DNA of 64,000 nt from Phoronis australis (lineage: Eukaryota > Animalia > Phoronida): NCBI GenBank assembly GCA_002633005.1, contig NMRA01000063.1, positions 414,010 through 478,009 of the forward strand, in the 5' to 3' direction. Shown in pieces: positions 23,942 to 57,224 of the stretch. The first letter of the stretch is position 1. Every line of letters starts with the position of its first letter. Both the position numbers and the translations under genes were made by a program. The notes beneath the pieces were generated by a model. That model was not told the origin of the DNA. It worked only from the letters and a program-made list of their open reading frames with translations, and did not search any database.

Positions 23942-24081
23942 TCATCTATCTGTATTGAGATGAACCTCTGATATTTCAAGGTTACTGGAACTTCTCCATC
24001 CAGTGTAACAGCTTCCCACACTTCTGACTTTGAACGATACCTCTACAGCGCCTCTTACTGGTAGTTCACACATACCTTCAA
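23942..24081 (-). CDS. PAN + 3xCTHRC1-domain gene, exon 9 (last; domain 3 C-half)
   Basis: ttttacag|; (V)EGMCELPVRGAVEVSFKVRSVGSCYTGWRSSSNLEISEVHLNTDR*; matches CTHRC1 EGLCEG...TGWNSVSRIIIEE. Confidence 0.9.
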
Positions 24082-24724
24082 CTGTAAAACAAACACGCCA
24101 GTCGAGCTTAACATTTTAACAACAACAACCACAACACAATAAAATCTGCATTCTGTCAAAAGCTATATTTTAATTGATGTAAACCACTTAAAGGTACATT
24201 CTCCTCGAGAAAATTAATTTTACAGAAATTAGATATAGCCAGTAACAGAACTCTGAGCCAACTCGAACGCGTTAAATAGTCTATTTTAAATACACCAACT
24301 TGACGTCAGTGAATGTCTAATAAACAACGGCGAGAATTGGCGACTTGTAATAGAATCACAAGAACACAGGGGATTTTGTTATTTTAAAGTTCTGGTAGAG
24401 ACGAGAGTTGCACTACAATAGTTGGTCCCTGTACTCCTCAAGTATATTGCTCTTTGTAAGAAGAAAAGTCCAAAATATGTCTTGTTTCCGAAAGCTTTTC
24501 TTATTTATTTTGACTATAAAATTTAACGTAAACAACTCTATAACCTGTTTGGTGGCAATATTTAATAAGTTAGTTCATCCCTAATTGAGTTGACTTCGTT
24601 ACCACAAAAACCCAACGTTTCACCAGCGGCACAAAACTAAAAGGTATCTTAAGAAGAAGAGATCATATTACTGATATCTATTCAATGATTTGATTATAAC
24701 AAAGACCGGAGACCTAGTTATTGT

Positions 24725-24744
24725 ATATATACATACACATACAC

Positions 24745-24817
<73 letters not shown>

Positions 24818-24850
24818 GGCCTACACATGCATGCATACATACATACATAT
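24725..24850. repeat. (CA)n microsatellite
   Basis: Direct. Confidence 0.98.
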
Positions 24851-25209
24851 AAAAATTAGATGGAAAACTAATTTTGGTGATTGGTATTGTTTTTTGGTCA
24901 AATTTTATGCACAAAAACTAGATTTTTAAAGCCTCTTAACATAATTTGGGGTTCTGCGAAATTTATGATTCTATAGCGGTTGGCTTAGGAGACAGGAATA
25001 TTCACCAGGGGAGGGATGGTCAAACAAACAACGGGGGGAAGTGTTGGATGGGGGAGGCATTTTGCGATGATTGGGGGACCACAACCTTTTTATTTCACCC
25101 GTGGCTAAGGCAGGGTTGGCAAGGGTATAATATATCTAACAGGCTTACAGAATAAGTTATAATACACATTTTATGAATCAATTATCGATGAACCTATACA
25201 GGTACTTAC

Positions 25210-25414
25210 CAACCGATGGTTGATGATAATTGTGATATGTGTGACTCATGACGATGGAGCCGAGGATTGGTCCTGGATTCGAGCACTCGACGTCATTAAA
25301 TGCAAAGTACCATGCGCAGCTCTGGGAGTTGGAATTCCAGTATGACGCTCTCAAGGTGCCCAACCAACGTACTTTGAGTGCACTGCGGCTTGACAACTTG
25401 AAGTATTCCACTTT
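25210..25414 (-). CDS. PAN + 3xCTHRC1-domain gene, exon 8 (domain 3 core)
   Basis: aacag|..G|gtaagt; KVEYFKLSSRSALKVRWLGTLRASYWNSNSQSCAWYFAFNDVECSNPGPILGSIVMSHTYHNYHQPSV; matches CTHRC1 FTKMRSNSALRV..GSLR..RWYFTFNGAECSGPLPI; phase 0-1. Confidence 0.92.
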
Positions 25415-25879
25415 CTGTTCGCAAATAGAACAAGCACATCATGTTTACTGCCCTTTTGGGAATGCCTTTTGAAATGAGGGCAATTAAATTTTATCCAACT
25501 AGAGAGCATTTTGCGGAAATACTTTCTAAAATGAAATCATACCGATAAGAATCTTTAATACGCAGACTCTGATAAAATACCATGAAATTGTTTTAGCGTT
25601 TCCAGCACTTTAACCGGCTATATACCAGCGGTAACATGACGGTTCACAAAACACATTTTCAGTTCCTTTTTACCGCGCAACTCTTGCCAGGCCAAGTTCA
25701 TTCGTTCCTCCAGTCGCGCTGGTCACCCTGAGTTCAGCACCCAGCCATCGCCACCAAACGCTAGTGACGCAAATTTGCTGCGCCATTCGGATGGCAGCAA
25801 ACGCGGTGGATTGATCAAACGAAGAAGCATACTCGGGATAGTCAAAGATTAGTCCAGTGTACTCCCGCTAAGACTTCGG

Positions 25880-26230
25880 CACAGGCGCTTTGGTGAACAC
25901 AAAAATGGATAAACCCACTGCTATCGGTGACCATTTAGTTCCATCTAGCCACACCATCAATATCTACAATACTAGAGTTCTAGCCAGGGGGGAACATTGG
26001 CACTCCCGCAAGATCAAAGAGGCCTTTTACATTAAACAATACAACCCCCCCACTCAACCGTGACCAGGGACTACAACTTCCTCCCATCAACCACAAGGAC
26101 GTGTTACGTTACTTCCGGTTCTACAATGGCGGGAAGACCAGCCATGTGATCAAGGGCCTGAGCTGCAGACTATGCTTATCTGACTTATAGTCTTCTAGTA
26201 AGTAAAGTCTGTCGTTTTTACTATCATCAC
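25880..26230 (+). mobile_element. Penelope-like element 3' remnant (GIY-YIG C-terminus, frameshifted)
   Basis: RFGEHK / AIGDHL..SHTINIYNTRVLARGEHWHSRKIKEAFYIKQYNP / LNRDQGLQLPPI. Confidence 0.8.
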
Positions 26231-26374
26231 AGAAGACGACGATGAATTATTAACACTTTTAATCATTACAGCGGGCTTGTAAAGTCAGTCCCTCAAATTT
26301 GGTTAGCTACCCTTTATATCAGTCTGAATATGTAAAACAAAAATTCCTAGCAATTTCGACTCCACTGTTGCATA

Positions 26375-26471
26375 CACAGGCGTCCTCAGCTTCTGATCGT
26401 CCCCAATACACTACATATAATACTACTATATGTAGTGTATTGGGGACGATCAGAAGCTGAGGACGCCTGTG
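26375..26471. mobile_element. 97-bp fold-back MITE with 8-bp TSD (hAT or P superfamily)
   Basis: Perfect 45-bp arms, 7-nt loop, gttgcata on both flanks, CA..TG ends. Confidence 0.9.
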
Positions 26472-26519
26472 GTTGCATATCGTCAGTGCTCAAACGGGGT
26501 GCTCAAACTTTAGGAAGAC

Positions 26520-26760
26520 TTTGTCAGAAACTTGAAAGCCCCAAATAGCCATGTGGATAGTGCCCTGCAGAAGTGGGTTAGAGTTTTAAATGTTATTTAT
26601 GTTGATGATTTTGATTGGTCCAAAATTTATCCATTACCTTATGTGTTAGCGTTAGATTCATATTTTAAGGTATTTCACGTACAAAATTGTACGCTGTATC
26701 TATAACAACAAATGTATTTTTAACGTTAATTAAAGTTCAAGAGAATGACTTGTGTTACGA
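26520..26760 (+). mobile_element. Tx1/L1-type LINE ORF2 C-terminal fragment
   Basis: Broken frame ALQKW..DFDWSKIYPLPYVLALDSYF/FTYKIV../TTNVFLTLIKVQENDLC resembles the zf-RVT region. Confidence 0.6.
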
Positions 26761-28420
26761 AAATATAAACGTAAATGAACACTTTTCGGTTACCCTGATA
26801 AAAAATTAACATCTATTTGCATATTTACAAACATGATAACAAGTTACACGAAACTTGGGACGAAGACAGGGTCGAACGTCAGCACCAACAGTCCAAAACT
26901 TGAAATTTGCGGCATCTCCAGTCTTCATCACCAAGGCGTCCTCACGCGTTCCGTTGAGTCCACTAGTCCACCAAAATAATACAGTCAAGTTCCATACACA
27001 AGACGCTACTGTCCGCGCCGTAGCAAAGGCTCACCACGTGAACAAATAACGCTCAGTATTCAGAAAGTATGAAGAAACCATAAAGTCCAGCCTCAGTGTT
27101 CAGACAAATCATGATACACGTCTGCTCACCATCAGCGACCAACTAGAACTCCGATAAAACTCAAAACTGCCCCCTAGCTCTCATAGTCAGACTATATGAA
27201 AAGAAATTAGCGCGAAATTCTTGCCTCCCAAAACGTCACTTCCGGAGTAGACTACGAGTAATTAATTAAATTACGAAAAGCAGTAAATAAGTGAAAAAAT
27301 ATGTCTGGGATAATCAACGAACCTTATTTTTGCTAAAAATGACATGAAAAAAGGTTGCCTTCGCCTTTAATGATACTCACAATACTGCTATATCTGGTCT
27401 CTGGTCTCGTTTTCGCACCATTGGAGTTTCTCATTATTTGTTGGCGTCTTGCTTTTTAATTTTTTTCTCGACTGCATTTATTGCATTCGAGCTTCAAATG
27501 CCAGCGAAGTGTTACTGCAACCAATCAGCTACATCGACATGTATATAATGTTCTCATTGGTTGCAATTTAGCAATGCGTTTCCTACCTCCGGGAGATTTC
27601 TATCTGGGACCGTTCATATCAACCAATCACTCACACTTCATGCCTTATATATAATACCTCATTGCGAATCCCCCTTCCCTCATGCTCCATTCCAGGATTC
27701 CAGTGGCCAAGATAAAATTTCAGATGCTTTACAAATGAAACTTTTGCCAAGACCAAATGTCAACAGTTGTACAACAGAACAATTTCATACACCCAGAACC
27801 CATAATTTCAGCTGCCGTATATAACTACAGTTGAACCACCGTACAGTAAATAATAAACAGATTCAGACTCCACCCACTGCAATTGTGGTTGAAATATAGT
27901 TCAACAGTAGAACTCAAGTGAACAGTCACCCTGCAACTGCATAACCAAATGTAAAATAAATAAAACCCAAATTTTGTTTTGATGAGTGTGAAGAACACCG
28001 GTGTAGCTACAGAGGGCCATGTCCCCCTTCATGACAGCGTTCTGTCGTTCAGCAACTTTCCAGACGTGAAGGGTTCTAAACGTGCGGTAACATCTGGCTT
28101 TTTTGTTAACTGCCCAGGACAGTCGTTTGTCCCGTATGACTACAAGCAGGCCAATTATCTACCAGGCTTCACTGGGTTACTGAAACCTGGCAGAATAGAT
28201 TGTCCTAACCAGTGGCGGATCTAGGATATCACAAGAGGGGGCCCAACATTTTGTCTGTAAACATTTGCGCAAAGCACGACTGTAGATGCGCATAGCACCC
28301 AATGGGGGGAGGTCGGGAGGGGAGAAATTTTTAATTTCTGTTTTTTCCTTGTATCCCGAAGTATTATCCAAGAAAAAAGGCAAAAAAGAGAAAGTGTCAA
28401 ACAGGAAAAACTGCAGGAAC

Positions 28421-28480
28421 CACAGACTCGAACTCACGACCTGACGATAGAGCACGCGTGCTTTACCACTGCACCACCAC
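28421..28480 (-). mobile_element. tRNA-like SINE head or tRNA relic
   Basis: A box tggtgcagtgg and B box gttcgagtc; no complete cloverleaf. Confidence 0.5.
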
Positions 28481-29681
28481 GATTTAACTCCTAATTTGCT
28501 ACTAAGAGACCTACTTGTTTATGGTCCACAGCGTTTACGGGCGAAACCTTTTTTGTAATGTTTATTACAATTTTTATATTTTGTGCAATCAGTTCGTAAC
28601 AAATTTGTTGTATTTAAAATAGTCTTTAATTGCCCAAAAGACCAAATCCGTTATTTTGTGTTGGCATAATGACGCGATTGCTTTGGAAATCGTCTTAAGG
28701 TTTGACAAAGAGAGAATTATGAGTTTCTGAGTGATTCACTGAGGCTTCGATTAAAATTCACATCTTACCAGCAGCTTCTGTTTTTTCATCGTCACCCAGA
28801 TTCCATTTTCTTTAAAAAATGAAGTAATTTTCTTCATTGCACAGTGAAGCAGACGACGGAAACAGAGTCGTAGTGCGCAGCCCCACTGCCGGTCGCCTGG
28901 GATATCGCGGGAGAGCCTATATACTTAGCCATAGTTCCGTTACGATTGATCCGTGTTCCGAATTTGACACTTGAAATTGGATCTGAGCCCCCCCCCCCAA
29001 CACAATAAAACTGCACACATTTCAATCTTGTTTCCGCCGTATAATGTTAATTACCGGGGTTAATTAATAAACTCAACATTTCCCTACGCTCTTGCTATTT
29101 TATTTTTTGCGGCCAAGGGGCAGGCTGATCCGATCCGATCGGAGATTAGAGCAAAAGAGAGCCGGCCCTCCCGACCATAAATGCCAGAGTGGAGTTAATC
29201 AGTCGTGTAAGATATTGGCTACAGGGGTAAACTTCCCAACTTGCTGTTGGGCTATTGAATCGAACAAATTGGGAGCAACGGGAAAACGCCGTAATGTTGA
29301 TCATTGATAAAAAATCCTCCCCGGGTCAATTTCAATTCATTTCAAAATGCCCTCTTTGCCACTCGTTTTCTCAATCACCTGGTCTCCAGCAATTTCACGT
29401 TTGTTCCGCCCCCTTCCTCTTCGTACTCCTGGATACGCTAGTAGTGATGACCTGTCATGGAGAGTTGTCGTAGCTCCATAGACAGCAGTGTCAGTAATTA
29501 CTAAAATATTGAAGAAACGTTTGCCTGATTCAACCGCCCGCAACATGCGCACAACGCATCTTGTTCAGGTAACATCAAAGATTTTATAGTTACCTTGGGA
29601 TATAGTATCTTTGGTATCACACACAAGTTTTCGTAGACTGAATTAATTTCAGTCTAGCGCGGAAAAATAATGTAAACTCAC

Positions 29682-29782
29682 TTTGATTTGCCCGTTGGTC
29701 GTCCCCGTATTCAGTGAGTGCCAATAGTGGTGAGCCAAGTTGAACTGCGGCACACGGACGCTTGTGCCATCTGGTCGAACAT
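29682..29782 (-). CDS. PAN + 3xCTHRC1-domain gene, exon 7 (linker + domain 3 N-strand)
   Basis: ctttag|..|gtgagt; (Y)VRPDGTSVRVPQFNLAHHYWHSLNTGTTNGQIK, cf. CTHRC1 [21 protein letters not shown]; phase 1-0. Confidence 0.9.
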
Positions 29783-30783
29783 CTAAAGATAGAACGTCGC
29801 AAATAACCCACTGCTTTAGACAAAGGCTAAATTACTAAACAATGGTGTCAGTGCAGGGTGCAAAGAATGTTATGGTTTCGCCTCTAAATTCCAGCTTCGA
29901 TACCCCAAGCCCCCGTCTCGAACCAGTAAACACCAAACCCAAGGTACAAAGTCCATACCTGCGCCCATTAACTCGACACATGCACCAAAAATACCGGACG
30001 GTACCACACAACATCCAATCCTGGACCATGGGTCTGGCTGAAGAACTGATCCTCGGGTATATGGAACAGGGTATGATGCATTTTCTTTGGGTGTGTGGAG
30101 TTTGGGTAGAGGGTACGAAGGCTGTACCACAGGTTTTGTGTGTTAGTCTGATACTGATGATACAGCGAATGAAGCTAGAATTTAGGTGAGCACGATGGGA
30201 TCGTGTCCATCCCTGAATGTAGTCGTAGAAAATTAGAAGATAAATTAGGTTCTGTTACGTAGTAATGCAGTAAGACACACTGTTTTCGTAGACATGAAAT
30301 AAAGTGACAAATGTACTTAAATTCAGGCCGTGGTATTGCAAAAATTCCGGAAGATGAAATTTTACTCGGTGTAGGATTCCATGGCTGTAATAACTGTCTA
30401 CAATGCTGCCTTTATATCATATTTACATAAGTGTTAAAACTAAGGCGACGTGACATTTAACTTTTAGTAAGGTATCAAAGAAGTCTACAATGTGGTTGCC
30501 GTTCGCAAAGATAATTTACTCTGTATGTTTACACGACTCAAGAAATTCCCCTTGCCGTGCGAGAGACGATGACAAGACACGAAATTTAAGTTTGTAATAA
30601 TTACGTGAGACTACATGCGCATTACAAAAGAAATGTATCTCCTCGTGTATTCGTGAAAAAGAAAGCTAAACAGCTGAGGGAGACAGACTGTCGACCTTGA
30701 GAAGATAGGGCGTTTGGCAGCCTGAAAACTGCAGACGATCGCTTCTTTCGCTTGTTCCTTTTTTACGTAGAGTGACTACTTAC

Positions 30784-30936
30784 ATGCACTGATCTTTGAA
30801 TTCAACCTGACTTCCTCAACAATAATTCGACTGTAGCTGTTCGAACCCTGGTAGGGACTTATGGATCCGCCGCAGTCTTGATGCCATAGCTGGATTTTTA
30901 CATTGCCTTCAGCTAGTCCTTTACAGATTCCACCAA
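30784..30936 (-). CDS. PAN + 3xCTHRC1-domain gene, exon 6 (domain 2 C-half)
   Basis: ttttgtag|..T|gtaagt; (I)GGICKGLAEGNVKIQLWHQDCGGSISPYQGSNSYSRIIVEEVRLNSKISA; phase 1-1. Confidence 0.93.
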
Positions 30937-31577
30937 CTACAAAATTGGCATGATTCGCAAGAATCTCCGATCAATGTCTGGAGCACCTTAAGTTCGACTC
31001 TAGGGTCACTCGGTGATTTTGATCTTGAAAAGCGTACTTCATACTGTGTAGGTCATTCTTTTTCAAGTTAGCACCATGAATATTTTAGTCCAAATTAGCT
31101 CATTTTTGGTTCAAGGAGGCTCAATAAGTAAAACAGTTTCAAAACGGTTTAGAAGAATTGGAAACAAAAAATCTTAATGATGTACTATTAGACACAACCT
31201 CTCTATCAGAAAACAGCTTCTGCATCTTCAAACGGGTTTCTGTTAACTTTCTTTTGAGCGCCAGAATTCGGTAAATTTTGCCATTTTTGTGTTTGATTTT
31301 TAGCTATTTTTGAGGTGCTCTGCGGGCCAGTTAGCGGGGCGCTGGTAGTTTCAAATACAATTTTCCATCATGCAGTTTGTTTCGACAAACTAAGAAAATA
31401 ACAAATATTAAAAAATGTTTTTTATTTGTTTCCAAGCAACAGCCGGCAATGCAAAGGACAAACTATCGCGCATTTTACAGTCCTTGACTACAAGCAATCT
31501 GTAGATGTATCTATTAAAGCTCGTTAAAGGAGATTCAGTAATTTTTGCAAAATATTTTTCTATTGTGATGAAAACCA

Positions 31578-32833
31578 TAATCTTCTTAGCCCATACATAC
31601 AAACTATTCACAAGGCTATTAAAAATGGAAAGGAGAAACAACTGGAAGAAAATCAACCCCGAGAACAAGCAGGGTTTAAAAAGAGCTACTCAGCAACAGA
31701 CCATCTGCAAGCGCTTGGACAAACAATTGAAAAATGTAACGAATTTAACCTGCCACTGTGTGTTGGTTTCATAGACTATGAAAAAGCTTTTGATTCAATT
31801 GAACATTTTGCCATTATTGAAGCCCTAAAAACATCAACATAAATGAAAAATATGTAAAACTGCTGCAAAATATATATACAGATGCAACCGCCACAATACA
31901 CATCGACAACCACGTCTCTGAAAGATTCAACATAGAGAGAGGAGTTCGACAGGCAGACCCAATTTCACCTAAACTGTTTACACTGACAATGGAAGAGATC
32001 TTCAAATCTTCAGACCTTCGAAGGGGAGTAAACATAGACGGAGAACATCTAACAGACCTAAGATTTGCAGATGATGTTGCTTTGTGCACAGAAGACATAA
32101 CACAACTAGAAACAAATTTAAATATACTAAATGAAGAAAACAACAATGTGGGATTAAAGATACACAAGGACAAGACAAAGTACATGACAAATTTTGAAAC
32201 AGATGAACAAGTAATGGTGGAGAACAAGATCATTGAAAAAGTCACACAATATAAATACCTGGCACACTATACAAATGGGGAACCGTATGACCAATGAAAT
32301 ACAAATCCGAATAAGAGCTGAATGGAGTTACTTTGGAAAAAAACAGAGAGATATTCCAAGATAAGAACATACCCATATCCCTGAAAAGAAAAGTATTTGA
32401 CCAGTGCATCATCCCCACAATTACCTATGGATGCCAAACATGGACCTTAACAAAGCAGATAAAAACACAGAGAGCAATGGAAAGAAAAATGCTTGGAATA
32501 AAATTACTAGACAGGATTCCACACACAGAGATAAGAGAACAAACAAGAGTCATGGACATAATCAAGACAATTCTGAAATTGAAATGGAGGTGGGGCGGAC
32601 ACGTGTCCAGAGCACAGGACAACAGATGGACAAAAAGATTACAGAGTGGCAACCCAGATATGGAAAGAGATCAAGAGGACGGCCCCACGCCAGATGGAGA
32701 GATGACATCGTGAAAACGATAGGCCCAACATGGATGAGAGCAGCAAGAGACAGAACAAGTTGGAAGGCATTGTCAGAGGACTACATCCTGCAGTGGATGG
32801 ACAACGCCTAGATGAGATGAGATGAGATGAGAT
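31578..32833 (+). mobile_element. RTE-clade LINE, 5'-truncated, frameshifted
   Basis: LLSHTYKLFTR, IDYEKAFDS, RGVRQADPISPKLF, LRFADD, KWRWGGHVSR..DNRWTK, EWQPR..KRSRGRP..RW; (GATGA)n tail; imperfect TSD gatgaaaacca/gattaaaacca. Confidence 0.95.
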
Positions 32834-33019
32834 TAAAACCAGCGACTTCAATTTTTAAATGATTCAAGTACTGCTAGCCTCCCTGGTGACAGCTTCTATA
32901 ACTAAATTTCTTTGGTAAAAGTTCATGAAATTTGGCAAAATGTTTCTATCGAAATGTTTTCAAGTGATTCTAACCTGTGTTGTCCTACCGGCAGTAGTTA
33001 TAAGCGTTTTGGAGACGGT

Positions 33020-33775
33020 TCACGTGTCTAATGTTTGCAACCACACCTGCCGCCAGCAAGTGTCTAATGTTTGCAACCCCACCTGTCGTCAACATGTGTC
33101 TAATGTTTGCAACCACACCTGTCGTCAGCATGTGTATAATGTTTGCAACCACGCCTGTCCTCATCATGTGTCTAATGTTTGCAACCACACCTGTCGTCAG
33201 CATGTGTCTAATGTTTGCAACAACACCTGCCGTCAACATGTGTCTAATGTTTGCAACCACACCTGCCGTCAGCATGTTCTAATGTTTGCAACCCCACCTG
33301 TCGTCAAAATATGTCTAATGTTGGCAACCACACCTGTCGTCACCATGTGTCTAATGTTTGCAACAACACCTGCCGTCAGCATGTGTCTAATGATTGCAAC
33401 CACACCTGTCGTCAACATGTGTCTAATGTTTGCAGCCACATCTGCCGTCAGCACGTGTCTAATGTTTGCAACCCCACCTGTCGGCAAAATGTGTCTAATG
33501 TTGGCAACCACAACTGTCGTCACCATGTGTCTAATGTTTGCAACCACACCTGCCGTCAGCATGTGTCTAATGTTTGCAACAACACCTGTCGTCAACATGT
33601 GTCTAATGTTGGCAACCACACCTGCCGTCAGCATGTGTCTAATGTTTGCAACCACACCTGTCGTCAGCATGTGTCTAATGTTTGCAACCCCACCTGTCGT
33701 CAACATGTGTCTAATGTTTGCAACACCTGCCGTCAGCATGTGTCTAATGCTTGCAACCCCACCTGTCGTCAGATG
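33020..33775. repeat. 36-bp minisatellite, about 21 copies
   Basis: catgtgtctaatgtttgcaaccacacctgtcgtcag. Confidence 0.97.
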
Positions 33776-34442
33776 CTAACTACTGCTGCGACAGTCTACC
33801 TTATTACCGAACAATCGTTATATTAAATGTAATGAAGCCTTTTCAATATGATTTTTTTTCATTTCTACAGGATTCCAAAAAGTGATTTCGTCACTTCCTA
33901 TAAGAGATAAAACATATCTCAAAAATATTGGACGCATGGGCTTCAAACTTTAAAGTTAGTTGAGGGTTGATTCTAGTAAATAATCTCAAGTGATATCAGA
34001 ACAGCAAAGTTGATGTGTAAGCCAAAATGATCGTGACAACCTTTTAACACAGTAATTTATTTTAGAAAATCTCTGCAATACAAAGGGAGCCATCATTATG
34101 AAAGTAGAAGTGCATAACTGCTACCATGGCCACTGAGTACTCCAAAAACATTTCTCCATGATTATAAAATAGGAGATGTTGCACGAAAGAAGGGTTTGAG
34201 TAAGTGTCACGTGTCACACTTCATCATCCAAATGCAGCCTATACCTGTAAACCAATTAAGATTTATTCGCATTTTGTTGCTCTTAATTTGTTAACATACG
34301 TCATAAAAATGATTTGAAAATACAGGTCCAAATATAGGTCAAAATATAGTAGCAAGCAACCCATTTTTCCTACCAGAGAAACTGACCACTCGGAATGAGT
34401 TGACACGGCACAGCTTTGTGAGTAAACAGAGGTTAAACTTAC

Positions 34443-34653
34443 TTGGGTGATCTCTCATTTGGTATCCCGTCTTTGAACTGCCATAATGTGTTATAATACC
34501 ATCTATTTTCCCTGGGTTAGAACACTCCAAGTCGTTGAACCTGAGGGAGTATAGCGCGCAGGTAGTACCTGTGTGACTAGGAAGCTCACGGAGTTGACCT
34601 CGCCACACGACCCTTAGTCCCGTTGACGACAATCGCTTCGAAAAATTTATTAT
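34443..34653 (-). CDS. PAN + 3xCTHRC1-domain gene, exon 5 (domain 2 core)
   Basis: tttttcttcactag|..A|gtaagt; IINFSKRLSSTGLRVVWRGQLRELPSHTGTTCALYSLRFNDLECSNPGKIDGIITHYGSSKTGYQMRDHP; phase 0-1. Confidence 0.92.
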
Positions 34654-35581
34654 CTAGTGAAGAAAAACAGTGGTTTTACACAGAGTTTTGAACAGCTGCA
34701 TGTCGCACTTGTTAATATAGCTAAAAATGAAAATCGAATTAGTTCTTTACTCTAATGAAATTGTCATGATAATCCTTATCATGATCTGATTCTATTACAA
34801 TTAGAAATTAACAAACACTTGATCCAAATCCTTTACTCAAGAAAGCGGCGAAATAATGTTAGGGATATTTCGGCAAACACTGCGGCGTTAAGCAAACAAT
34901 CAATCTTATGTCAAAGTAGCTATTCAAAAATACACATTATTTTCACCAACAATGAAATATAATTGCTTTTTAGCGTTCTTCATAACAAAATCAGTCCATC
35001 ACACAGTTTTTATTTATAGGCAGTAATTTATTTTTGTCACACCTAATAGCTAATCTAAATCATGTAAAAAAGATAATTTCTATTTCTGATATACATCTCG
35101 AATAATATCATTGTAGGCTCTATTATTCTATTCATGTCAGTCCTCAACCAAATCAATATTCACTATTATTCTACATATGTTTGCCATAAGTATGATTTAT
35201 GTCTGGCAAAAATACAGCCAATGGGAATCGAGCAACTATGTCAGATATAGACAAAGGAAAAATGAATTGTGATATAAATCAGCCACTGAGAATTCATCAT
35301 TTCTCTATTTTATGTCTGACGTAATTCTCCGATTCTCATTCAGATCAGACACAGATTAACGGTGGATTTTAAACTCGTTTTAACCAGACATAAGTAGAGA
35401 ATGGCAGCGAGTCATGAATCATTGCACATGACAATTAATTCGGGAACTGTGTCAGTCATTATTGAAATTATGTTTAGCACATTTTGACATAATACTTATT
35501 GTAGTATGCGATGTTCATTTGTTTGTGGAATTTCCACGAGAAGTCGTTATGGATTCCAGTTGGTGCACCTTTTAGTAAAAC

Positions 35582-35770
35582 ACCTTATTCACGCAGTCGC
35601 ATTATTACAAAGAATCTCATTTTAGGTTTTAAAAACAATGCTTTCCGCGCTTAATTACAGTGCAGAACATGTTTTTCGCTTGCCTCGTTATATTTATATT
35701 TATATCTCAAATGCATGGTTTTTAAACCTAAACAGAGGAACATTTTTAAAATAGCGACTGCCTGGATAAG
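35582..35770. mobile_element. Small MITE with ~22-bp inverted ends
   Basis: ccttattcacgcagtcgccatt / aatagcgactgcctggataag; right tip interrupted by the next element. Confidence 0.6.
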
Positions 35771-36019
35771 GGGCTTGTTCCAAGAAACTGACTTAAGTTC
35801 ATTTTTTACTTAAGTTTAAAATTTGTCTTAACTTCCAAATTTTGAAACTTCCACATTCGGTAAGTTAGTCAAAATTAAGACAAAACTTATGTCAAACACT
35901 TGAGTCAAACTTAAGATCTCTTTCTTCAATTTATTTTTAAACAGATTTAACTTTCATTTTAAGATTTACTAAAAATTTAAGATTTGTCTTAGCTGAGTGA
36001 CTTTTGTTGGAACGGGCCC
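35771..36019. mobile_element. PIF/Harbinger-like MITE
   Basis: TIRs gggcttgttccaagaaa / ttttgttggaacgggccc; 3-bp TSD AAG; internal cttaag repeats. Confidence 0.75.
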
Positions 36020-36404
36020 AAGGTCTATGGGTAATGTTAAATGGCTAAATCACTAAAAAGTATAAAAGCTCCCAGCGGAGTACGACCTCATTCTAAAACC
36101 AGGTCAACCTGACTTGGAAGCATTTGGCATTGAGTTCATTAAATGGAATTGAATATACAATTTGATGTTTTTTGCACAAACGCCCGCCCATATATAACAT
36201 CATATCGGAAAGCAATGGAAATCTTTTCTATCGCAAGGTCTATATACTCATTTCTCAGTTATTTGTGGTCATTTCACTACATTTATCATACATTAATTTC
36301 TGGTTTCTGATGGGCTGCGGCTACAAACTCCTATTGAACATTGATTATGGTGACGATTCGCATTTACTGACCACATGTGTAAAGCATACGCGCAGGTCAC
36401 TTAC

Positions 36405-36499
36405 TGCAAAGGCTACTGCGTCGTTCTTTGTTGCCGCATCATTTTGCCAGAAAGCTTGTTTGACGTTGAACGAACTCAAGGCAGAACACGTCGTTTTGT
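36405..36499 (-). CDS. PAN + 3xCTHRC1-domain gene, exon 4 (linker + domain 2 N-strand)
   Basis: ttctcatctag|..|gtaagt; (D)KTTCSALSSFNVKQAFWQNDAATKNDAVAFA, cf. NYKQCSW; phase 1-0. Confidence 0.9.
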
Positions 36500-37037
36500 C
36501 TAGATGAGAACAAACGCGTAATCGTGATTACTGTGTCACACAAATTTGTGATTGTATTAATAACAGCATAAGCACAAAAAAGGAACCTGTTAATGGTAGA
36601 CAAACGTGAAAAATATTTAGTTACAACTTTTATGTCCAGAAAACATGGGTTTGTACACTTTCAAAAATGAACCCACCTTTCGTCCCAAAGCCAACTTTTG
36701 ATTTAGTTTTTTAAGTTCTCTTAAAAAGTTGTTTATTGATCGACACAATGTTCTAAAGCTTGACATATCATTGCTTGTCATATTATTGGTCGAACATAGT
36801 AAGACCAAACATATCTCCTAATTTGACCCACAAACAAGTCGAGTTCAACTTTTTAGCGCCAAATGATCTAAATCTAAATCCAGTTTCTGCGACGGAACGA
36901 GGGTTTGTTACCGATTGAACGAGGGTTTGTTACCGATTGAACGACAGTTTGTTACCGATTGAACGACAAAAGCTACTGCAGTACTTGCTGCAACTCATTT
37001 TAATCAGGCGTCAGCTGTCATGGCAAGTATACTTTAC

Positions 37038-37205
37038 CTAAGCTCGCGGACATGTCCACTTCCCGAACCATGAGGCGCGCGTACGAATGGGAAGCGAACA
37101 ATATGTGCGAGCTGTAAGAACTGTTTTCCGTACTTCCTTTACAGTTGCTTACATAAACATCAATGGTAACGTCACCGGCCGCCAGTCCTTCACAAATACC
37201 ATCAA
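37038..37205 (-). CDS. PAN + 3xCTHRC1-domain gene, exon 3 (domain 1 C-half)
   Basis: gttttag|..G|gtaaag; (V)DGICEGLAAGDVTIDVYVSNCKGSTENSSYSSHILFASHSYARLMVREVDMSASL; phase 1-1. Confidence 0.93.
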
Positions 37206-38334
37206 CTAAAACATTTCATCCAATAAATAATATTTGATACTGTACATTCTCAAATATAATTTCTTTTTCAGTGTAATCTATATGTGTCAAATCACATGTA
37301 ATGTTGTCACAGTTATTAACATAAAGTAAAATTTGATTTGCGGGTAGTTAAAAAGACGAAGTTAACAGCTCCAAACTCAGTTTGTTCAATTCGGCCAGTG
37401 TCACCGACGGAATTTGAATTCTTGAATGTAATTAAAATTTTCTTTACTTTAACCGAAAGCTGATGTTGGTTCACCTAGAATAGCACAATTAGAGAAAAAA
37501 CATATTAATTGATGCTGGGGCATCTACAATAGCACAATTAGAGTAAATAAAAGCATATTAATTAACATCAACTTATTTACGAGGACATTTGGTCAATCTT
37601 CACCAAGTTTCATATTCTCTATTTATCGCAAGATAATATTAATGTTTTAAACACTGAAATTACTGAACTGTTATTTGAAATGAAGTAAATTAAGAAACGC
37701 TACTTGACCACCTTGTGTCTTTCAAAGCATGTACATGTATAATACGTGTAAAGAATTTTGATTAAAAAATCAATCAAAGTTAATTTTAGTAAAAATACTA
37801 GATTATAATTCAAATTATACCGGAAGCTGCTAATTCATTTTTTCATCCGCAACATGAAGGTAGGAAGTTACTATTACAAAAACATCAACACCACATATTC
37901 TTTTTCAAGTTAAATAGCTTTGAAAAAGATTTAGAAAATATCAGATTAATCTAAGTATTTTTAAAAAAAAGCTCTTGAAAGAAAAAGTATTAAAAACACA
38001 TAATACTAAAAAATATTAAAGCTAATAAAATGTCTTGGTGATTAGTAAACAGCGTCCAGTAAACAGAGTCCAGTAAACAGCGTCCAGTAAACAGCGTCCA
38101 CAATTATTTCAATGTTTATTTCGTGCATGATCTATGTTAAGAGTGTGATTGAATTTGCAAGATTTGGAATTTATTATTGTGATTTCTTTATCTAGATAGT
38201 TTTTCAAAAAACTGTGAATTTGTAAAATTCAATGACAATTGCGCTCATATGATTATTTTAGTACCTTTGTGATCTTTGGTGGATGTTTTTCCTAGAATCA
38301 TTGTGTGGATGTATGGCTTTATGAAAAACAGATG

Positions 38335-38722
38335 TTGATTCTATTGTAATGTTAGTATGGAATGAATAAAGGTGCTGTCGATTCTATTGTAATGTTAGTA
38401 TGGTATGAATAAACGAGCTGCTGATTCTATTGTAATGATAGTATGGTATGAATAAACGTGCTGTTGGTTCTATTGTAATGATAGTATGGTATGAATAAAC
38501 GTGCTGTCGATTCTATTGTAATGATAGTATGGTATGAATAAACGTGCTGTTGGTTCTATTGTAATGATAGTATGGTATGAATAAACGTGCTGTTGGTTCT
38601 ATTGTAATGATAGTATGGTATGAATAAACGTGCTGTCGATTCTATTGTAATGATAGTATGGTATGAATAAACGTGCTGTTGATTCTATTGTAATGATAGT
38701 ATGGTGTGAATAAACGTGCTGT
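38335..38722. repeat. 43-bp minisatellite, 9 copies
   Basis: gattctattgtaatgatagtatggtatgaataaacgtgctgtt. Confidence 0.96.
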
Positions 38723-39177
38723 TAATAAAAAAAGTTTCATGAGAGTTGTAACCTTTAGCAATTGTGATATTTCAAAAGATTTGAAACCAATGAAATTAGA
38801 TACTTCATATGTAATTGTTCGCTCACATACCACACCGCGCGTTGTCATTGATTGTCATTTCACATGTTATAAATGATGTTTGATATTTAAAACGAATACT
38901 AAAAACCCGATGCATGGTAATGGCCGCGGAACAAAATAATTTTAAAGTTTTTTACATTGGTCACAAATGTTCCTAGAGAGTGTTGAAGGTTCACGATATG
39001 TACAATTATATTTAAAATAAACACAGCTTTGACCTAACGGCGACAAGATAATCTCAGAAAAGTCTGTTTCTTTTTGCTCGAAGTTAAACTGATTTTTGGT
39101 CGCAAGTGGAACCGTTTATTTCATCACAGTGCAGCCTGACGGTTTAATTGCAGTATATTTTGAATTAATTGACCTAC

Positions 39178-39382
39178 CTTCTTCCATTTTTCCGTAGAGC
39201 AAGTTTACGTCACTCTCGAAATGAATGATGTCTATTCCACCTGATTTGGGACATGTCGCTCCATTAAACTTGAAATACAAGGTTGCACAACACGCAATAG
39301 AACACCCCTTGGAGCCACGAAAATCGGTAAACAATGTCACGTGCAGACCGGATTTCGGGGATTTTTTCGGGTACACTTTGGT
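39178..39382 (-). CDS. PAN + 3xCTHRC1-domain gene, exon 2 (domain 1 core)
   Basis: ttttccag|..G|gtaggt; TKVYPKKSPKSGLHVTLFTDFRGSKGCSIACCATLYFKFNGATCPKSGGIDIIHFESDVNLLYGKMEE; cf. CTHRC1 CRNACCQRWYFTFNGAEC; phase 0-1. Confidence 0.92.
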
Positions 39383-40159
39383 CTGGAAAATTGAAATTCA
39401 TTTTAATCGAAGAGAAATGTCAATTGAACAGCAGAGGGCAAGCAGACTCTATTTGACTTCTAGTAAAGAATGCAGGCTGCGTTCCGCACTTACAGCGAAA
39501 AAGTTTCGTTTTTGAAATGGAAAAAATGATGCTATAATTAACATTCCGTCTTTCACCGCCGACCATCACTTCGGTGGCTGCCATTTTATTAGGGTGCGCT
39601 TGTTAGGTAGGATACGCGACCCAGTCACTCAAAATTTTTTTACACTTGCGACGTCAGTGGTGTAAGCCTATCCGACGGGATTAGACTACTCGGGGGATAA
39701 AACTGAACTATTTTGACCTGTCTCAAACATGCAGTGATGCGAACTCAAGGTTTAAATTTATAATTTTCATATTGGATGAATATCTCTCCGTCTTCATTAA
39801 TAAAATTTGCAATTTTTCAGCGCATCGTTTGTCGTGTTGCATATGCATGTACATGTGATTTGTTTGAGACTTGACACTGACAGGTTTTCCTTTCAAGGAG
39901 TAAAAGCCGCGGACGACGCCGGGAAGAACGAGTTTGCGATCTTTCTTTTAAATCAAAATACGTCACATGTCAAACCTCCTCAGCTCGCTAAATGTCGGGG
40001 TGTAAAACGTTATTGAGAGACTGAGACGCGTTTGCGTAATATGCACGCGAAACACGTACTTATCATTCTGCGTGGATTTGCGTGGTCTTGATTGTGTTTT
40101 GCGTCTACAGGTAATTGTGTTTTGCGTCTACAGGTAATTGTGTTTCAAAATGTTACCTG

Positions 40160-40430
40160 CAGTTTATGTTCTTCTGCCAATCTGGTCGTCCACTCTTGGT
40201 TTGTCTTTCCAATATAGAATTGTCGGATGTTGCCGAGAATTTCTTCAGAACAATCGTCCGTGTCGACTGAAAACAGTGATCGAGGTCTCATCACATTGAC
40301 TCTTGACAATGATGACGTAACAAACTCAGGCTCGGCTCCAGTTTTCCGCCATTCCACCAGACGAAGAAGGTCTCAAGATGAGACCGAAAGCTTGTGGTTT
40401 CTATGTAAACTTCATGACACCGAAAGGTAA
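40160..40430. mobile_element. Rearranged Penelope-like remnant
   Basis: Minus-strand YIGKTNQEWTTRLAEEHK (GIY-YIG motif) abutting a plus-strand 3' end with a hammerhead-like motif. Confidence 0.65.
40354..40397 (+). ncRNA. Degenerate minimal hammerhead ribozyme (Penelope type)
   Basis: ccac..ac-gaagaa ggtctc-aagat-gagacc gaaa gctt gtgg; the core lacks the U of CUGANGA. Confidence 0.6.
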
Positions 40431-41454
40431 CTTATCATTATTCAATTTCATAATTTCCCACATCCGGGACTCTATATCCGCCACACGGTTTGTATTGGAA
40501 ATAGTTTATAATGGACATAATAATATTTTATAGGCATAATAAATGGGTGATAAAGTAGCATTTGTGCTTCCAGAAATACAACTTACCCCAACACACGGGC
40601 TCCGGTGGGGCGGGACATTCGTTGCTATGGCTATTGTCACAGTCAGTGCAGTCTCGGCCACATACTGCAGGCGAGGGGCAAATTATTTCACAAGGAGAAT
40701 TCGGGCTTATCTGAAACGAATTTTTATATTTTTTATCTACAACCTTGCCATTGATTCGGATTTAAAATAGCATTTCAGTTTAAAGATAACGAAACGAATT
40801 ATAAAGAAGACTATACCAAACAAGCTAGACCGACAGAATGAACAATTGCAAGCTTGAAGCATTTTCTTCTATTTGCCGGTGTAGCATATATTAGTGACCC
40901 CGGGTCACTTTTTAATATTAAAAATGACACGGGTCGCTTTTCAATGGGATCTAAATTTAATATGAACTACTCTGAAAAAATGACCCCATGGAGCCATTTT
41001 TTCACATATAAATAAATGGTAGGTTAAAATCAAAGAACACAGACTTCATTTCTTGTGCATCTCCTAGAACTGTCTCGAATTCAATGGCGGTGTAAAAGAT
41101 AGAACTCCATTGCAGTTCATAGTCATACTTTCAATGAGCATAACGTTCAGCCTGTGCAAACTTTTCAACCAAGTTTTGTTAATCACATGAAAAGTTGAAT
41201 ATGTTTAGCGCAGCCCCCCCCCCCCCCTGGGTTGACACTTCCTTGGTGNGTGTCCCCTCCCCTGGACGACAAAGGCTCCCTGCCCTCTCCCCCTGGTCGA
41301 CCGACAACTCCTTGGCGCACCCCTAAGTCGACAATGGCTCCTTGGCTCCAACTGTTGACACCTCGTTGGCGCAACACCTGGTCGACAAAGGCTCCTTGCC
41401 CTCCTGACTGAATTCGATCTCAGTTACAAGTACCAAGCAGATGTGAATTTGACG

Positions 41455-42215
41455 CGTTTAGCTCAAAATCTTAGTTTGCACTTAATGACATTTGATCTAT
41501 TGTTTCTAATTGGATGGCTCGATTGCTGAGTGAAGTAGTGTATTTGATTGGCATTTGTACGCTTACACCTGCGTGTTGAAATTGGAGAGAATTCCTTGAA
41601 AAATGTAAGAGAATTTAAAGTTTGAAAATTATATGACCTTTGCACTAATTGGCCCTATCCGGTGAAAAGTGGGTTTAATGCTAAGATTCACAGTTGTCTA
41701 ACTGGTAATTCATCAGAAAACGTGTTAAATGAAAGGTCAAAATTTCAGATGAAAAATGCACTTAGTGACCCCATGGTTGCAGCAAATGACCTGAGAGTCT
41801 AGAATTAGAAGAACTCGATTACATGTACAATATTTGGAATTTGAAGTGTCTACGTCAAAATCTTAGTATGCACCCAATGACATTTAACCTATTTTTTCTG
41901 ATTAGATGGACAGATTGCTAACCAAAGTAGTGTATTTGATTGGCATGTACGTTTACAGTTGTGCGCTCAAATTGAAAATTGTAGGAGATGATTTTGAAAA
42001 TTAGATGATCTTTGCTATAGTTGACCCTATCCGGATCATTATAAACGAGTGTAGTAGAATCATTGCAACGTCCGTGAAAAGTGTGTCTCATGCTGAGAAT
42101 CACAGTTGTCTAACTGTTGACACATCAGAATACGTGTTGAATGAATAGGTAAAAGATTCAGAAGAAAAATGCACCTAACGACCCCATTATTGCTCCAAAT
42201 GACCTGAAACTTTGG
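41455..42215. repeat. Diverged ~390-bp tandem duplication (2 units)
   Basis: tcaaaatcttagt(t/a)tgcac at 41463 and 41855, with colinear similarity to aaatgacctga. Confidence 0.85.
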
Positions 42216-42299
42216 ATTTGGTACTGCATTAAAGAATTCTGTTTCCTTGAAGCTTACATCTTTCTAAAGCTCGGGCAATTCAGCACACCAATAGGGTTT

Positions 42300-43665
42300 C
42301 CTTTTCACTTACAAAAGCTATTGCTCTACAGACCAGAATAGAATCAATTAATTCTCTCATAGCCGTATTAAAAATTGCGGATTTCATGAAGTCTTCGGGA
42401 ATTGACTGCACGTTATATTTCTTAGGAGAATCAATGCCAACTTAATTTAAATGTGAAGAGTTGCCATTATAATGCACGGAAAATCTAGGGCAACTAAAGA
42501 ATAATCTGCTATATGGAAAACACCAAAAAGGTCACTCAAGTGATGAAATTTGTCCAGCAATTCCCCGAGTGTATAAAATTTCATGTTGCGTAAGAACGTA
42601 GTCAACAGCCGAAGAACCCCTTCCCGAAACGACTGTAAAGCTATCATGTTCGGGACTTACTCGCCCATTGAGAACAGAGAACTTTGTGTCAATACAAAAT
42701 TTCAGGAGGGAATCCTCATGTCTATTTTTAGAAAATCTAAAGACTGTCTAGGTGGTGATTACGTCGACAACCTGCACATAATCTTTCATGTCTTTTATAC
42801 GGGCATTAAAGAGGCATGGAACGCGAACCCTCGTCAAAAATATCTTTTAAAGAATTCCTGATTAAAGTACCATCCCGCAACGTCTAGTACAGAGTAATTC
42901 AAATTCCCCTGTGAGGTAATTTTCGGAAAAAAATCACAAAATTCGCGGTTTTTGAAATACGCGCGAATGAAAAACTCTGTGGTCACCACAATGTTTCTAA
43001 TCTCCCTCCTACTTATAATAAATGCGCGCATGCGCTCACAGTCAAATGTCACATTTTCCATGTATGGAAAATGAACTACATCTATGTCTTGCCATACCAA
43101 ATAAGGAGACGTGCTCTTGATTGTTTTTTGAAATTTGAAATTAAAAGAAAATGCTTTGATATCAACAGAAATTAAATATCTTTACGAACAAATCCTAAAA
43201 GTACCTGGTAAGCAGGCAAAAATTCAATTTCAGTGGCAGAGAAGCACTTTCAATATTAGAAAATATACAGAGTCAACAAGGAAAAACAAGTGACATAACA
43301 AATAAAGAGTGAACTTTTCACAAGGGGAATTTTCTGGAGCTAAATAACAGACTAATATTACAAACTTATAATCAGAAATCACATCACTCAATTGCAGCCC
43401 AATTATGCCATCATGAGATTTATCAACAACCTTAACAGTATATTAAGTTGAGTCAACTAATACTCCTATTTCCCCAAACGGCCTAATAGCACGCGTATGC
43501 ACAGTGTTTCTATTATGGCCATATCAAACAAATCTTTCTACATAAATATTATCGACTTTAGCCAAATGGGTTTCAACAATATAGAAAATAACTGCTTCGG
43601 ACCCACGAATTACTTTCTCTCGCAGACCTTTGTTATTCTATGTCCAATCATTTGCATTCCGGGGG
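42300..43665 (-). mobile_element. LINE (RTE-X/L2-like) apurinic endonuclease fragment, split by an insertion at about 42805-43230
   Basis: NANDW..KGLREKVI..IFYIVETHL..GHNR..YLAPENS / FNARI..LLKFCIDTKFSVLNGR..FT..GRGSSAVDY, with stops and frameshifts. Confidence 0.8.
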
Positions 43666-44026
43666 AAATTCGTGTGGAAATTTCATTTTTCTGTAAATTT
43701 TCTGAAAATATTGTCATATATGAGGCACCGTACATCAAAGGATCTCCATACGTTTTCTCGCCGAATCGTTATCTTATACGGGAAATAATTAGTTAGGTTT
43801 TACCCGTTAGTTTTTTACTGTTCGGGCTTGTATTGAGGGTAAATATGTTTTCAGGAAGTATATGCTTAATTATTGTCTTACACTCGCCAATATACTTCCT
43901 CATATAATTGATTTACAGCAAGACAGAGAGACTGACAATTGTTGTAGACCACCTGTTGCGAAATAACATCTCTTGCACCATTATTAAACTTATTATTACA
44001 GGCATTTCAGAAAATTACATGCTTAC

Positions 44027-44359
44027 ATTCCACAAAGGCTTCGGCACAACAAGATGGCGTTGTCCAGTACACCTCGCGACCTCTTCTTCAGATACTGTAG
44101 TGTCATTCACGCTGTCGTATAGAAAACAAACGCCAGAGTTTTCAGAATGAAATACAGACTTACATCGCTCATTCTTCTTGCATTTGATCGCACATTCTAA
44201 TTCACTTCGAGCTAAAACTTGCTGAAATGCCAACTGAGGTCTCGACAACGTGACTTTGGTAGTCCACGTACGGTAAGATTCATTGCACACCATAATCTCG
44301 GAAAGCTTCGCGGGCTGTATCAGAAACAGAACTAGAAAGGAGGCCAATACAAAATACAT
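44027..44359 (-). CDS. PAN + 3xCTHRC1-domain gene, exon 1 (signal peptide + PAN/apple domain + start of domain 1)
   Basis: MYFVLASFLVLFLIQPAKLS signal-like; SELECAIKCKKNERCKSVFHSENSGVCFLY is a PAN cysteine pattern; donor AAT|gtaagc is phase 0 and matches exon 2. Confidence 0.88.
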
Positions 44360-57145: not shown

Positions 57146-57224
57146 CTGAAACAATAGTCATCGAAATATTATGAACAACATCTAGTAGAAGCAATCATAT
57201 AGTAGTTGCAGAAGTAACAGTAGA

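Follow-up and report, generated by a model that had tools for sequence, protein, structure and literature searches.

Gene structure and RNA support

The window, a 64,000-nt stretch of Phoronis australis DNA, carries on its minus strand a coding frame of 11 exons, 1845 nt and 614 amino acids, made up of nine exons that had been predicted from the sequence and two that came to light in RNA reads. Its product starts with a likely signal peptide, followed by a PAN domain and a Cys-rich knot and then by three complete CTHRC1_C domains; it has no Gly-X-Y repeat. No second copy of the gene was found within the 64-kb window. The coding exons are as follows.

44027..44359, minus strand: exon 1, 333 nt, with the ATG, a hydrophobic, signal-peptide-like start (aa 1-20) and the PAN/apple domain (Pfam match at aa 44-88); donor 44027 used in RNA
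40587..40710, minus strand: exon 2, 124 nt, phase 0 to 1, Cys/Pro-rich knot with 7 Cys; both joints in RNA
40157..40266, minus strand: exon 3, 110 nt, phase 1 to 0, start of CTHRC1_C domain 1; both joints in RNA
39178..39382, minus strand: exon 4, core of domain 1, PF25815 E 3.1e-4; seen in RNA
37038..37205, minus strand: exon 5, end of domain 1, PF25815 E 2e-4; seen in RNA
36405..36499, minus strand: exon 6, start of domain 2; RNA on either side, aligns with homologs
34443..34653, minus strand: exon 7, core of domain 2, PF25815 E 2e-7; acceptor used in RNA
30784..30936, minus strand: exon 8 (predicted), end of domain 2, PF25815 E 4.2e-5; consensus splice sites
29682..29782, minus strand: exon 9 (predicted), linker and start of domain 3; the linker is position-specific and common to the Lingula proteins
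25210..25414, minus strand: exon 10 (predicted), core of domain 3, PF25815 E 1e-9
23942..24081, minus strand: exon 11 (predicted), end of domain 3 and TGA stop, E 2.1e-6 with our own HMM

Exon 3 shares its phase class with exons 6 and 9, and AATAAA motifs lie downstream of the exon 11 stop at 23117 and 22197. The RNA sample consisted of three raw-read runs from one study, about 19% of each, and the gene is expressed in two of the three; no joints of the gene were found in runs X3 and X4. Six coding junctions, reaching the exon 7 acceptor, are backed by reads (counts per run): 44027 to 40710 (6+9), 40587 to 40266 (5+11), 40157 to 39382 (15+3), 39178 to 37205 (14+7), 37038 to 36499 (9+5) and 36405 to 34653 (5+5). 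The reads across the first three of these show that two exons (124 and 110 nt), which encode the Cys-rich module and the first part of domain 1, had been missed. The junctions 34443 to 30936, 30784 to 29782, 29682 to 25414 and 25210 to 24081 are predicted from the sequence. A homology scan of intron 1 had suggested acceptor 40664 for exon 2, which the RNA joint ruled out; the same scan placed the true exon 3 no higher than 19th among 130 candidates, and it was the RNA that decided.

The nine-exon gene proposed by the sequence-only reading stands in all nine coordinates, in its AG/GT borders and agreeing phases and in its 1611 nt, which translate with no internal stop, and falls short in its exon count and length, which the RNA sets at 11 and 614 aa. 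Three of its eight junctions were seen in the reads; 44027 to 39382 was absent, its place being taken by the path via exons 40710-40587 and 40266-40157.

Domain composition

Exon 1 matches Pfam PAN_1 (PF00024) with E 2.2e-6 and 27.8 bits against a cut-off of 21.4, and an HMM built from six homolog N-termini with E 1.7e-11; the PAN cysteines 56, 60, 66 and 78 align with those of the homologs. The knot in exon 2 has no Pfam match, and its Cys pattern is common to all six aligned homolog N-termini. Five of the eight remaining original exons match PF25815 (CTHRC1_C) as fragments, with E values from 3e-4 to 1e-9, two of them clearing the cut-off alone. When an HMM from 82 domains outside the family is used, the three full domains are detected at E 3e-25, 3e-32 and 2e-34. 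They are about 30% alike and keep 13-15 of 19 conserved columns, inside the family range of 11-18, as are their domain scores. The 614 residues contain no Gly-X-Y run of at least three, and the nine exons have no C1q family match in Pfam at E up to 1. The proposed content of a PAN domain and three CTHRC1_C domains with no collagen is therefore borne out by Pfam, our own HMM and the Gly-X-Y scan. In the nine-exon model, the hydrophobic, signal-peptide-like N-terminus (aa 1-26) alone rises above 1.4, and it has no sense reads; secretion of the protein is likely, a judgement that rests on sequence and homologs because the sampled transcripts skip the signal peptide.

A family of PAN-3xCTHRC1_C proteins

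A full HMMER search returned 279 matches at E 0.001, of which the best 150 were examined; word-index protein searches gave none among 78 candidates for exon 1 and none among 305 for the three core exons. A PAN domain followed by three CTHRC1_C domains without collagen was identified by Pfam in P0001, P0002 and P0003, and by precomputed Pfam plus our own HMM in P0157. No Collagen Pfam match was found in family members P0001-P0006 and P0009, nor a C1q Pfam match at 0.01 in whole homologs. The window protein is 29.8-31.5% identical to P0001 and P0002 over 584 columns (E 1e-64 to 1e-68). P0002 is a 611-aa protein on a contig of only 2632 nt, and its coding sequence is therefore read without introns, from what is probably an RNA contig. 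Every complete family member found has exactly three domains (P0001, P0002, P0154, P0155, P0156, P0157 and the window protein), and some gene models with two (P0005, P0009) may be incomplete. Two matches, P0007 and P0038, were set aside as Ig-repeat false positives. The following Lingula anatina members are entered in RefSeq as "uncharacterized".

LOC106162620
LOC106165752
LOC106178942
LOC106180315
LOC106175114
LOC106180490
LOC106175063
XP_013388928

Some of these eight loci may be alleles. Together with P0002 they share the window protein's domain order and linkers, at about 29-32% identity and in one clade, whereas some members differ in being partial or in having no Cys-rich knot (P0003/P0154, P0155). 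Bugula neritina KAF6026444, which belongs to the same set, is a fragment with two domains and no PAN. The nearest named relatives of the window gene are a brachiopod and a bryozoan.

In a quick tree, from which P0152, P0003 and P0006 were omitted as near-duplicates of P0001, P0154 and P0155, all 27 family domains group in a single clade together with an additional Lingula fragment (SH-aLRT 98). The family domains cluster by position, with 4 changes vs 13.3 when shuffled and none of 200 shuffles as low. The window domains have long branches (1.67, 1.16 and 1.02; median 0.42), domain 1 falls outside the group of other first domains, and a topology in which the window gene triplicated its domain separately is compatible with the data (p-AU 0.28). 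By domain order, linkers and common clade, the window protein belongs to the PAN-3xCTHRC1_C family. The domain order that had been proposed for a search of metazoan proteomes recurs in independent gene models (Lingula and P0002), and the gene, far from being unique, belongs to a multigene family with existing RefSeq records. Searches of the literature outside subscription journals turned up no description of this architecture, in agreement with the sequence-only reading; the family is apparently undescribed and also present in lamp shells.

Predicted fold of the three-domain head

Folds were taken from AlphaFold models of two homologs about 30% identical to the window protein, P0002 (pLDDT 79.9, pTM 0.79) and P0001 (pLDDT 79.2, pTM 0.72). 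For both models the top four of 48,161 chains are engineered single-chain trimers, namely 5HZF (C1q head), 4DOU (adiponectin), 5KCA (Cbln1) and 4ZCH (APRIL-BAFF-BAFF). One model gives Z 25.8 for 5HZF (rmsd 3.3 over 338), 25.4 for 4DOU, 23.7 for 5KCA and 21.5 for 4ZCH, with the next chain at 7.0; the other gives 26.8, 26.5, 24.4 and 22.7 for the same entries, with the next at 7.8. Across about 340 residues, both models superpose on the matched chains with rmsd 3.3-3.9 and an identity of 6-9%, and Foldseek places the same four entries at ranks 1-5. The structural check suggested for the protein thus yields a C1q/TNF-like three-part head, which, having been run on two homologs, is a prediction for the window protein. 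Among 177,635 PDB sequences, the search for solved relatives of CTHRC1_C gave none beyond one chance match (E 0.07).

The PAN parts of the homologs match apple domains with Z 4.7-7.8, among them the apple lectin SML-2 (7.8) and the HGF N-domain (6.0). In single-domain comparisons the TNF-like lectin PLTL is among the best or near-best matches (Z 7.0 and 6.6). The likeness to PLTL, the BC2L-C N-domain and SML-2 is one of predicted fold only (Z 6.6-7.8), and all lectin matches lie below Z 8, a level the tool calls common. The Atlas gave a weak lectin lead at 0.77 and no usable match for P0001. Fold likeness by itself shows no function.

From the match of the two homolog models to single-chain C1q/TNF trimers comes the prediction that it is the triplication which brings three heads together, in place of the collagen helix. 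PAN had been proposed as the replacement for collagen; in the models that task falls to the triplication and not to PAN.

The 5′ end and the transcript seen in RNA

In the RNA, exon 1 is entered downstream of the ATG; the features concerned are the following.

47026..47100, minus strand: non-coding exon further upstream, its 5′ limit approximate; donor AAG/GTATAA at 47026
44027..44111, minus strand: short exon 1, 85 nt, the form found in RNA, with its acceptor inside the PAN coding sequence
44378..44398, minus strand: candidate acceptor 19 nt before the ATG, which would join the upstream exon into a full-length mRNA

The joint 47026 to 44111 is carried by 2 (X1) and 12 (X2) reads and accounts for all 14 listed entries into exon 1. 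Neither of the two expressing runs has a sense read between 44114 and 44663, where the ATG, the signal peptide and the PAN core lie. Together these results put the full-length share in the RNA samples at about 20% at most. Since all 14 joints enter mid-exon 1, the full-length mRNA of this copy is a predicted one. In the short form a stop lies in frame 7 codons ahead of the joint, and its next in-frame Met is residue 255; it may be an unproductive splice variant. The 83 skipped codons have an intact frame, for which the chance is about 0.4% at this composition. A crude matrix derived from 10 of the gene's own acceptors ranks the candidate acceptor at 44378 first among the AGs between 44560 and 44028; no reads in the runs sampled use it. 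Full-length mRNA would be made in tissues or stages outside the sample, either from a promoter beside the ATG or by splicing of the upstream exon to 44378. Retroelement remains flank the start on both sides, with a Gypsy remnant beside the upstream exon.

Proposed role and alternatives

We consider it probable, with reservations, that the intact 614-codon, 11-exon frame encodes a likely secreted protein in which PAN and the Cys-knot precede three CTHRC1_C domains that close into a one-chain C1q/TNF-like head with a recognition or bridging role. In the models the three domains would form one pseudo-three-fold head within a single chain; because they are about 30% alike, the head would be a fixed heterotrimer with three different faces, an arrangement that the position-specific divergence and linkers suit. 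PAN, placed where the stalk was, may give a second binding site, and the protein would act as an extracellular recognition or bridging molecule, putative binding of glycans on microbes, particles or matrix being the most likely function. The eight Lingula loci fit an expanding recognition family. A wider scheme, which we put forward tentatively and would not ourselves bet on, is that lophophorates, and perhaps more lophotrochozoans, hold an old, expanded and undescribed family of natural single-chain CTHRC1-head heterotrimers that traded collagen for triplication plus PAN, as a parallel to bivalve multi-C1q proteins and bacterial fibre tips, serve these animals as a lectin-like recognition system, and are switched off in this species by splicing into the PAN exon.

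Among the alternatives, the one we take most seriously, while judging it unlikely, is that the family is real and this copy is unproductive or decaying, having lost its signal-peptide start to upstream transcription beside the Gypsy remnant and making no secreted protein. The absence of sense reads over the start, the exclusive use of the 47026 to 44111 joint, the upstream stop with a first Met at 255, the long branches and the retroelement remains on each side of the start all point that way. Yet the frame is intact across all 614 codons, the 83 skipped ones included, the PAN score equals or exceeds those of the homologs (21.7-25.8 bits), domain scores and conserved columns lie within the family range, a good acceptor precedes the ATG, and the RNA covers a fifth or so of three runs of one study, one of them without expression; a recent loss, for its part, would leave frame, PAN score, columns and acceptor intact. 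Somewhat less probable still is that a protein of this structure acts like vertebrate CTHRC1 and modulates Wnt/PCP or TGF-beta/BMP signalling or collagen deposition, its PAN domain binding a receptor or proteoglycan as in HGF. True homology to CTHRC1_C, the HGF N-domain among the PAN matches, expression that varies between samples (two of three) and the conserved Cthrc1 signalling function suggested by Leclere et al. (PMC7058181) are consistent with it, whereas Lingula also has eight conventional collagen-bearing Cthrc1 genes according to the same paper, and the present family is a separate, fast-evolving, expanded clade.

That the three domains stay unpacked, as beads on a string or in intermolecular trimers building a network, seems to us improbable: all complete members have exactly three domains, the two homolog models agree, and divergence and linkers follow position, although other CTHRC1_C arrays have 2, 4 or 8 domains (P0008, P0012, P0021), the possibly incomplete models P0005 and P0009 have two, and AlphaFold, having been exposed to single-chain C1q constructs, may be biased towards such packing. 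We give hardly any weight to a fusion of neighbouring genes, with either the PAN exon or exons 9-11, which encode domain 3, coming from another transcript. The junctions after 34443 are sequence-based and exon 8 read past its donor would stop three codons on, but RNA connects the exon 1 donor through to domain 2; for domain 3 the link is the domain 2-3 linker, collinear with those of the Lingula proteins and P0002, and the 1-kb intron shows no sign of a start exon of its own.

Comparison with known systems

CTHRC1 has been studied in fibrosis, tissue repair and cancer. In Leclere et al. 2020 (PMC7058181), Cthrc1 is defined by a signal peptide, a CTHR and one C-terminal domain; it trimerises via its collagen region, and the C-terminal domain was modelled ab initio as a C1q-like trimer. 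The window protein resembles metazoan Cthrc1 (PF25815), as portrayed there, in its signal-peptide-like start, homologous C-terminal domain and predicted C1q-like trimeric fold, and the intron near the start of each window domain is probably the conserved intron of that paper; it differs in having no collagen repeat, three domains per chain, and PAN and the Cys-rich knot first. A footnote to Table S3 of the same work mentions other collagen-less proteins with the C-terminal domain in Lingula and Phoronis, the layout not being described in the portion available. This collagen-less branch now has a defined architecture, is expanded in a brachiopod and echoes the three-domain C1q proteins of bivalves.

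Oyster multi-C1q proteins have mostly three domains, and SUEL-lectin/C1q fusions also occur in oyster (PMC6835236). Bivalve smultiC1q (e.g., HcC1qDC6) and sSUEL/C1q proteins, which serve in immune recognition, are likewise collagen-free, usually with three tandem C1q/TNF-fold heads, and include lectin fusions. Theirs is the C1q domain proper, whereas the window exons and homologs have no C1q Pfam match; given this and the 6-9% structural identity, the present family is therefore a parallel solution and not a member of theirs. The engineered trimers have the same predicted three-domain arrangement (Z 21-27) and are laboratory constructs, of which the family, judging from the predicted models, would be a natural equivalent with PAN added. 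As a natural three-domain chain with a predicted C1q-type head, it lends independent support to the modelled CTHRC1 fold and offers a collagen-free construct for work on the structure and ligands of the C-terminal domain. If the wider scheme above is true, CTHRC1 heads assemble by themselves into a binding module of the C1q/TNF type, and the family would provide a soluble monomer with which to obtain the first structure of a CTHRC1_C domain and its first ligand.

Two bacterial fibres (P0048, P0070) also end in three tandem CTHRC1_C domains on one chain, without PAN. Their domains group together (SH-aLRT 100), away from the PAN-3xCTHRC1_C family, and their triplication is therefore independent.

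Gene model and domain content

The gene is real and has 11 coding exons on the minus strand, the junctions 3′ of 34443 being placed by sequence. The sequence-only reading had proposed nine, and these are correctly placed: their borders are AG/GT, their phases match and their 1611 nt contain no internal stop. Its total of nine was wrong, as RNA adds two exons. Three of its junctions were confirmed by reads, while the first was replaced by three others, from 44027 to 40710 (6 + 9 reads in expressing samples X1 + X2), from 40587 to 40266 (5 + 11) and from 40157 to 39382 (15 + 3). RNA support for the coding junctions extends to the acceptor of exon 7 (34653), upstream of the four remaining 3′ junctions. 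In the nine-exon model the domains were unequally built, with three exons each for domains 2 and 3 (phases 1>0, 0>1, 1>1) and the first exon missing from domain 1. Of the added exons, one encodes a Cys/Pro-rich knot and the other the previously absent start of domain 1; both maintain the frame, giving 1845 nt and 614 aa. No base differences inside exons are listed from the RNA reads.

The proposed domain content is borne out. Exon 1 matches Pfam PAN_1 above cut-off, five exons match portions of CTHRC1_C (PF25815), and the 614-aa model contains three complete CTHRC1_C domains (E = 3e-25, 3e-32, 2e-34) and zero Gly-X-Y runs, in line with the claimed lack of collagen. With a domain HMM built on 82 CTHRC1_C domains from outside the family of PAN proteins with three such domains, the scores of the three domains fall within the range of other family members.

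Transcripts and the 5′ end

RNA mapped to the window comprised three raw-read runs from one study and one contig set, chosen by species label. Two runs express the gene at an exon depth of ~6-20, and none of its joints occur in X3 or X4. A loose read end within exon 1 (44027..44359) maps to 47028. Among the joints listed in a second read mapping (bin border 44114), which has 24 joints and 315 loose ends beyond those listed, 2 + 12 reads join 47026, the donor of an upstream non-coding exon, to 44111, an acceptor inside the PAN coding sequence. Over 44114-44663, sense depth is 0 in both expressing runs and antisense reads number about two per run. The upstream exon carries an in-frame stop seven codons ahead of the joint, and no in-frame Met follows until residue 255, so the sampled transcripts are unable to make the secreted protein. 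As 0 of the 14 listed entries are full-length, the full-length share is below about 20% in these samples.

We infer, as the simplest reading, a full-length form restricted by tissue or stage, plus an unproductive variant. Three observations speak against decay: all 83 skipped codons are open (a 0.4% chance event), the exon scores as well for PAN as homologs do, and an acceptor, unused in the reads, is present 19 nt before the ATG. The window copy may still have lost its function recently.

Family and phylogeny

Searching 1.84 billion proteins with a profile built from the three core exons retrieved 279. Among the best 150 of these, the top six carry PAN and/or multiple CTHRC1_C domains and lack collagen; five of the six are Lingula anatina RefSeq models, mostly 'uncharacterized'. 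Further searches brought the Lingula total to eight loci, of which some are partial and some may be alleles; the Bugula neritina record has two domains. Over 584 columns, the window model is 31.5% identical to homolog P0002 (611 aa, encoded on a 2632-nt contig) and 29.8% to homolog P0001, and the PAN cysteines, Cys-rich knot and both inter-domain linkers are collinear among them.

A quick tree of 67 domains unites the 27 family domains with one Lingula fragment in a single clade (SH-aLRT 98), separate from bacterial proteins with three terminal CTHRC1_C domains. Family domains group by position (4 changes versus a shuffled mean of 13.3; 0/200 shuffles as low). Window domain 1 has a long branch and is placed among second domains. 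A constraint uniting all first domains is not rejected (p-AU 0.72), but neither is a window-specific triplication (p-AU 0.28). One old triplication is favoured from the sequence comparison, because linkers and N-terminus are shared. The gene is a member of a collagen-free CTHRC1-domain family, so far known from lophophorates and seemingly undescribed.

Other CTHRC1_C layouts (homologs P0008, P0012, P0010, P0021, P0122) include collagen + 4 domains + FN2 in the sponge Oscarella, (collagen + domain) x2 in Actinia, folate-receptor repeats + domain in Branchiostoma, a protein with 8 domains, and a fusion with SRR1 that could be an artefact of gene modelling.

Predicted structure and proposed function

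Structures were predicted for P0002 (pLDDT 79.9, pTM 0.79) and P0001 (pLDDT 79.2, pTM 0.72), standing in for the spliced window protein; the two models have most of their alignment in common and are not fully independent. Compared with 48,161 chains, both models best match the same four engineered single-chain trimers, those of C1q, adiponectin, Cbln1 and APRIL/BAFF (Z 21.5-26.8, rmsd 3.3-3.9, 334-352 residues, 6-9% identity), with the next-best at Z 7.0 or 7.8 for the two models, and Foldseek agrees. As the match covers all three domains, it reports packing as well as fold, and the protein is predicted to act structurally like a single-chain C1q head. Neighbours matching one domain (Z < 8) are PLTL, a TNF-like lectin that binds glycans (PMC12914763), Pgp3, BclA and a fibre tip from Bdellovibrio. 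For the PAN part, the matches are SML-2, apple domains of factor XI/kallikrein and the N-domain of HGF (Z < 8).

In Leclere et al. 2020 (PMC7058181), Cthrc1 is defined by collagen together with a single C-terminal domain; the authors model it as C1q-like and note in a footnote that Lingula and Phoronis own further domain-bearing proteins without collagen; the protein studied here falls outside Cthrc1 by that definition. The sequence-only reading did not recognise the architecture as described, and our literature searches likewise found no paper describing PAN with three CTHRC1 domains. The component parts are not new, and there are precedents for a three-in-one device. In their 2019 paper, Gerdol et al. 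(PMC6835236) report 21 oyster multi-C1q genes, mostly with three domains, and 16 SUEL/C1q fusions, and other three-domain C1qDC proteins are described (PMC10672478, PMC5519582).

CTHRC1 trimerises via its collagen region (PMC7058181). Three heads linked within one chain would have no need of such a stalk, whose place may be taken by the PAN domain and Cys-rich knot, and divergence among the heads would give a fixed heterotrimer. The weakest step of this proposal is the role, which we put as extracellular recognition or bridging, most likely glycan-directed, and rate on its own at slightly short of an even chance; it is suggested by how the family has expanded and how fast it evolves, by the lectins among the structural neighbours of both parts and by the parallel with bivalves. 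A signalling role resembling that of CTHRC1 is possible.

Other features of the window

9391-19519, plus strand: serine hydroxymethyltransferase gene; four exon-bearing frames match Pfam SHMT
31528-32811, plus strand: LINE reverse-transcriptase fragment (RVT_1) in intron 7
47351-49085, plus strand: broken Gypsy-type retrotransposon pol remnant (RNase H, integrase)
51637-56213, minus strand: unbroken one-strand coverage, likely the 3′ UTR of a minus-strand gene lying further upstream
60268-60879: 203-aa frame with a weak ATP_bind_1 match (E 0.0065)
33024-33772, 9755-10459, 3844-4447, 57217-57654: minisatellites, 25-39 bp units, ~18-21 copies

The stretch 44600-45200 (minus strand), just upstream of the ATG, has no Pfam match; we take it to resemble the 3′ end of a LINE, complete with AATAAA and (TC)n tail. 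Only ~300 bases separate the Gypsy-type remnant, a candidate source of promoter sequence, from the non-coding exon upstream of the gene, and coverage of the likely 3′ UTR stops near 51637 in both runs. The likely last exon of the serine hydroxymethyltransferase gene ends near 19519, so that this gene and the CTHRC1-domain gene lie tail to tail. The minisatellites give rise to several long pseudo-ORFs.
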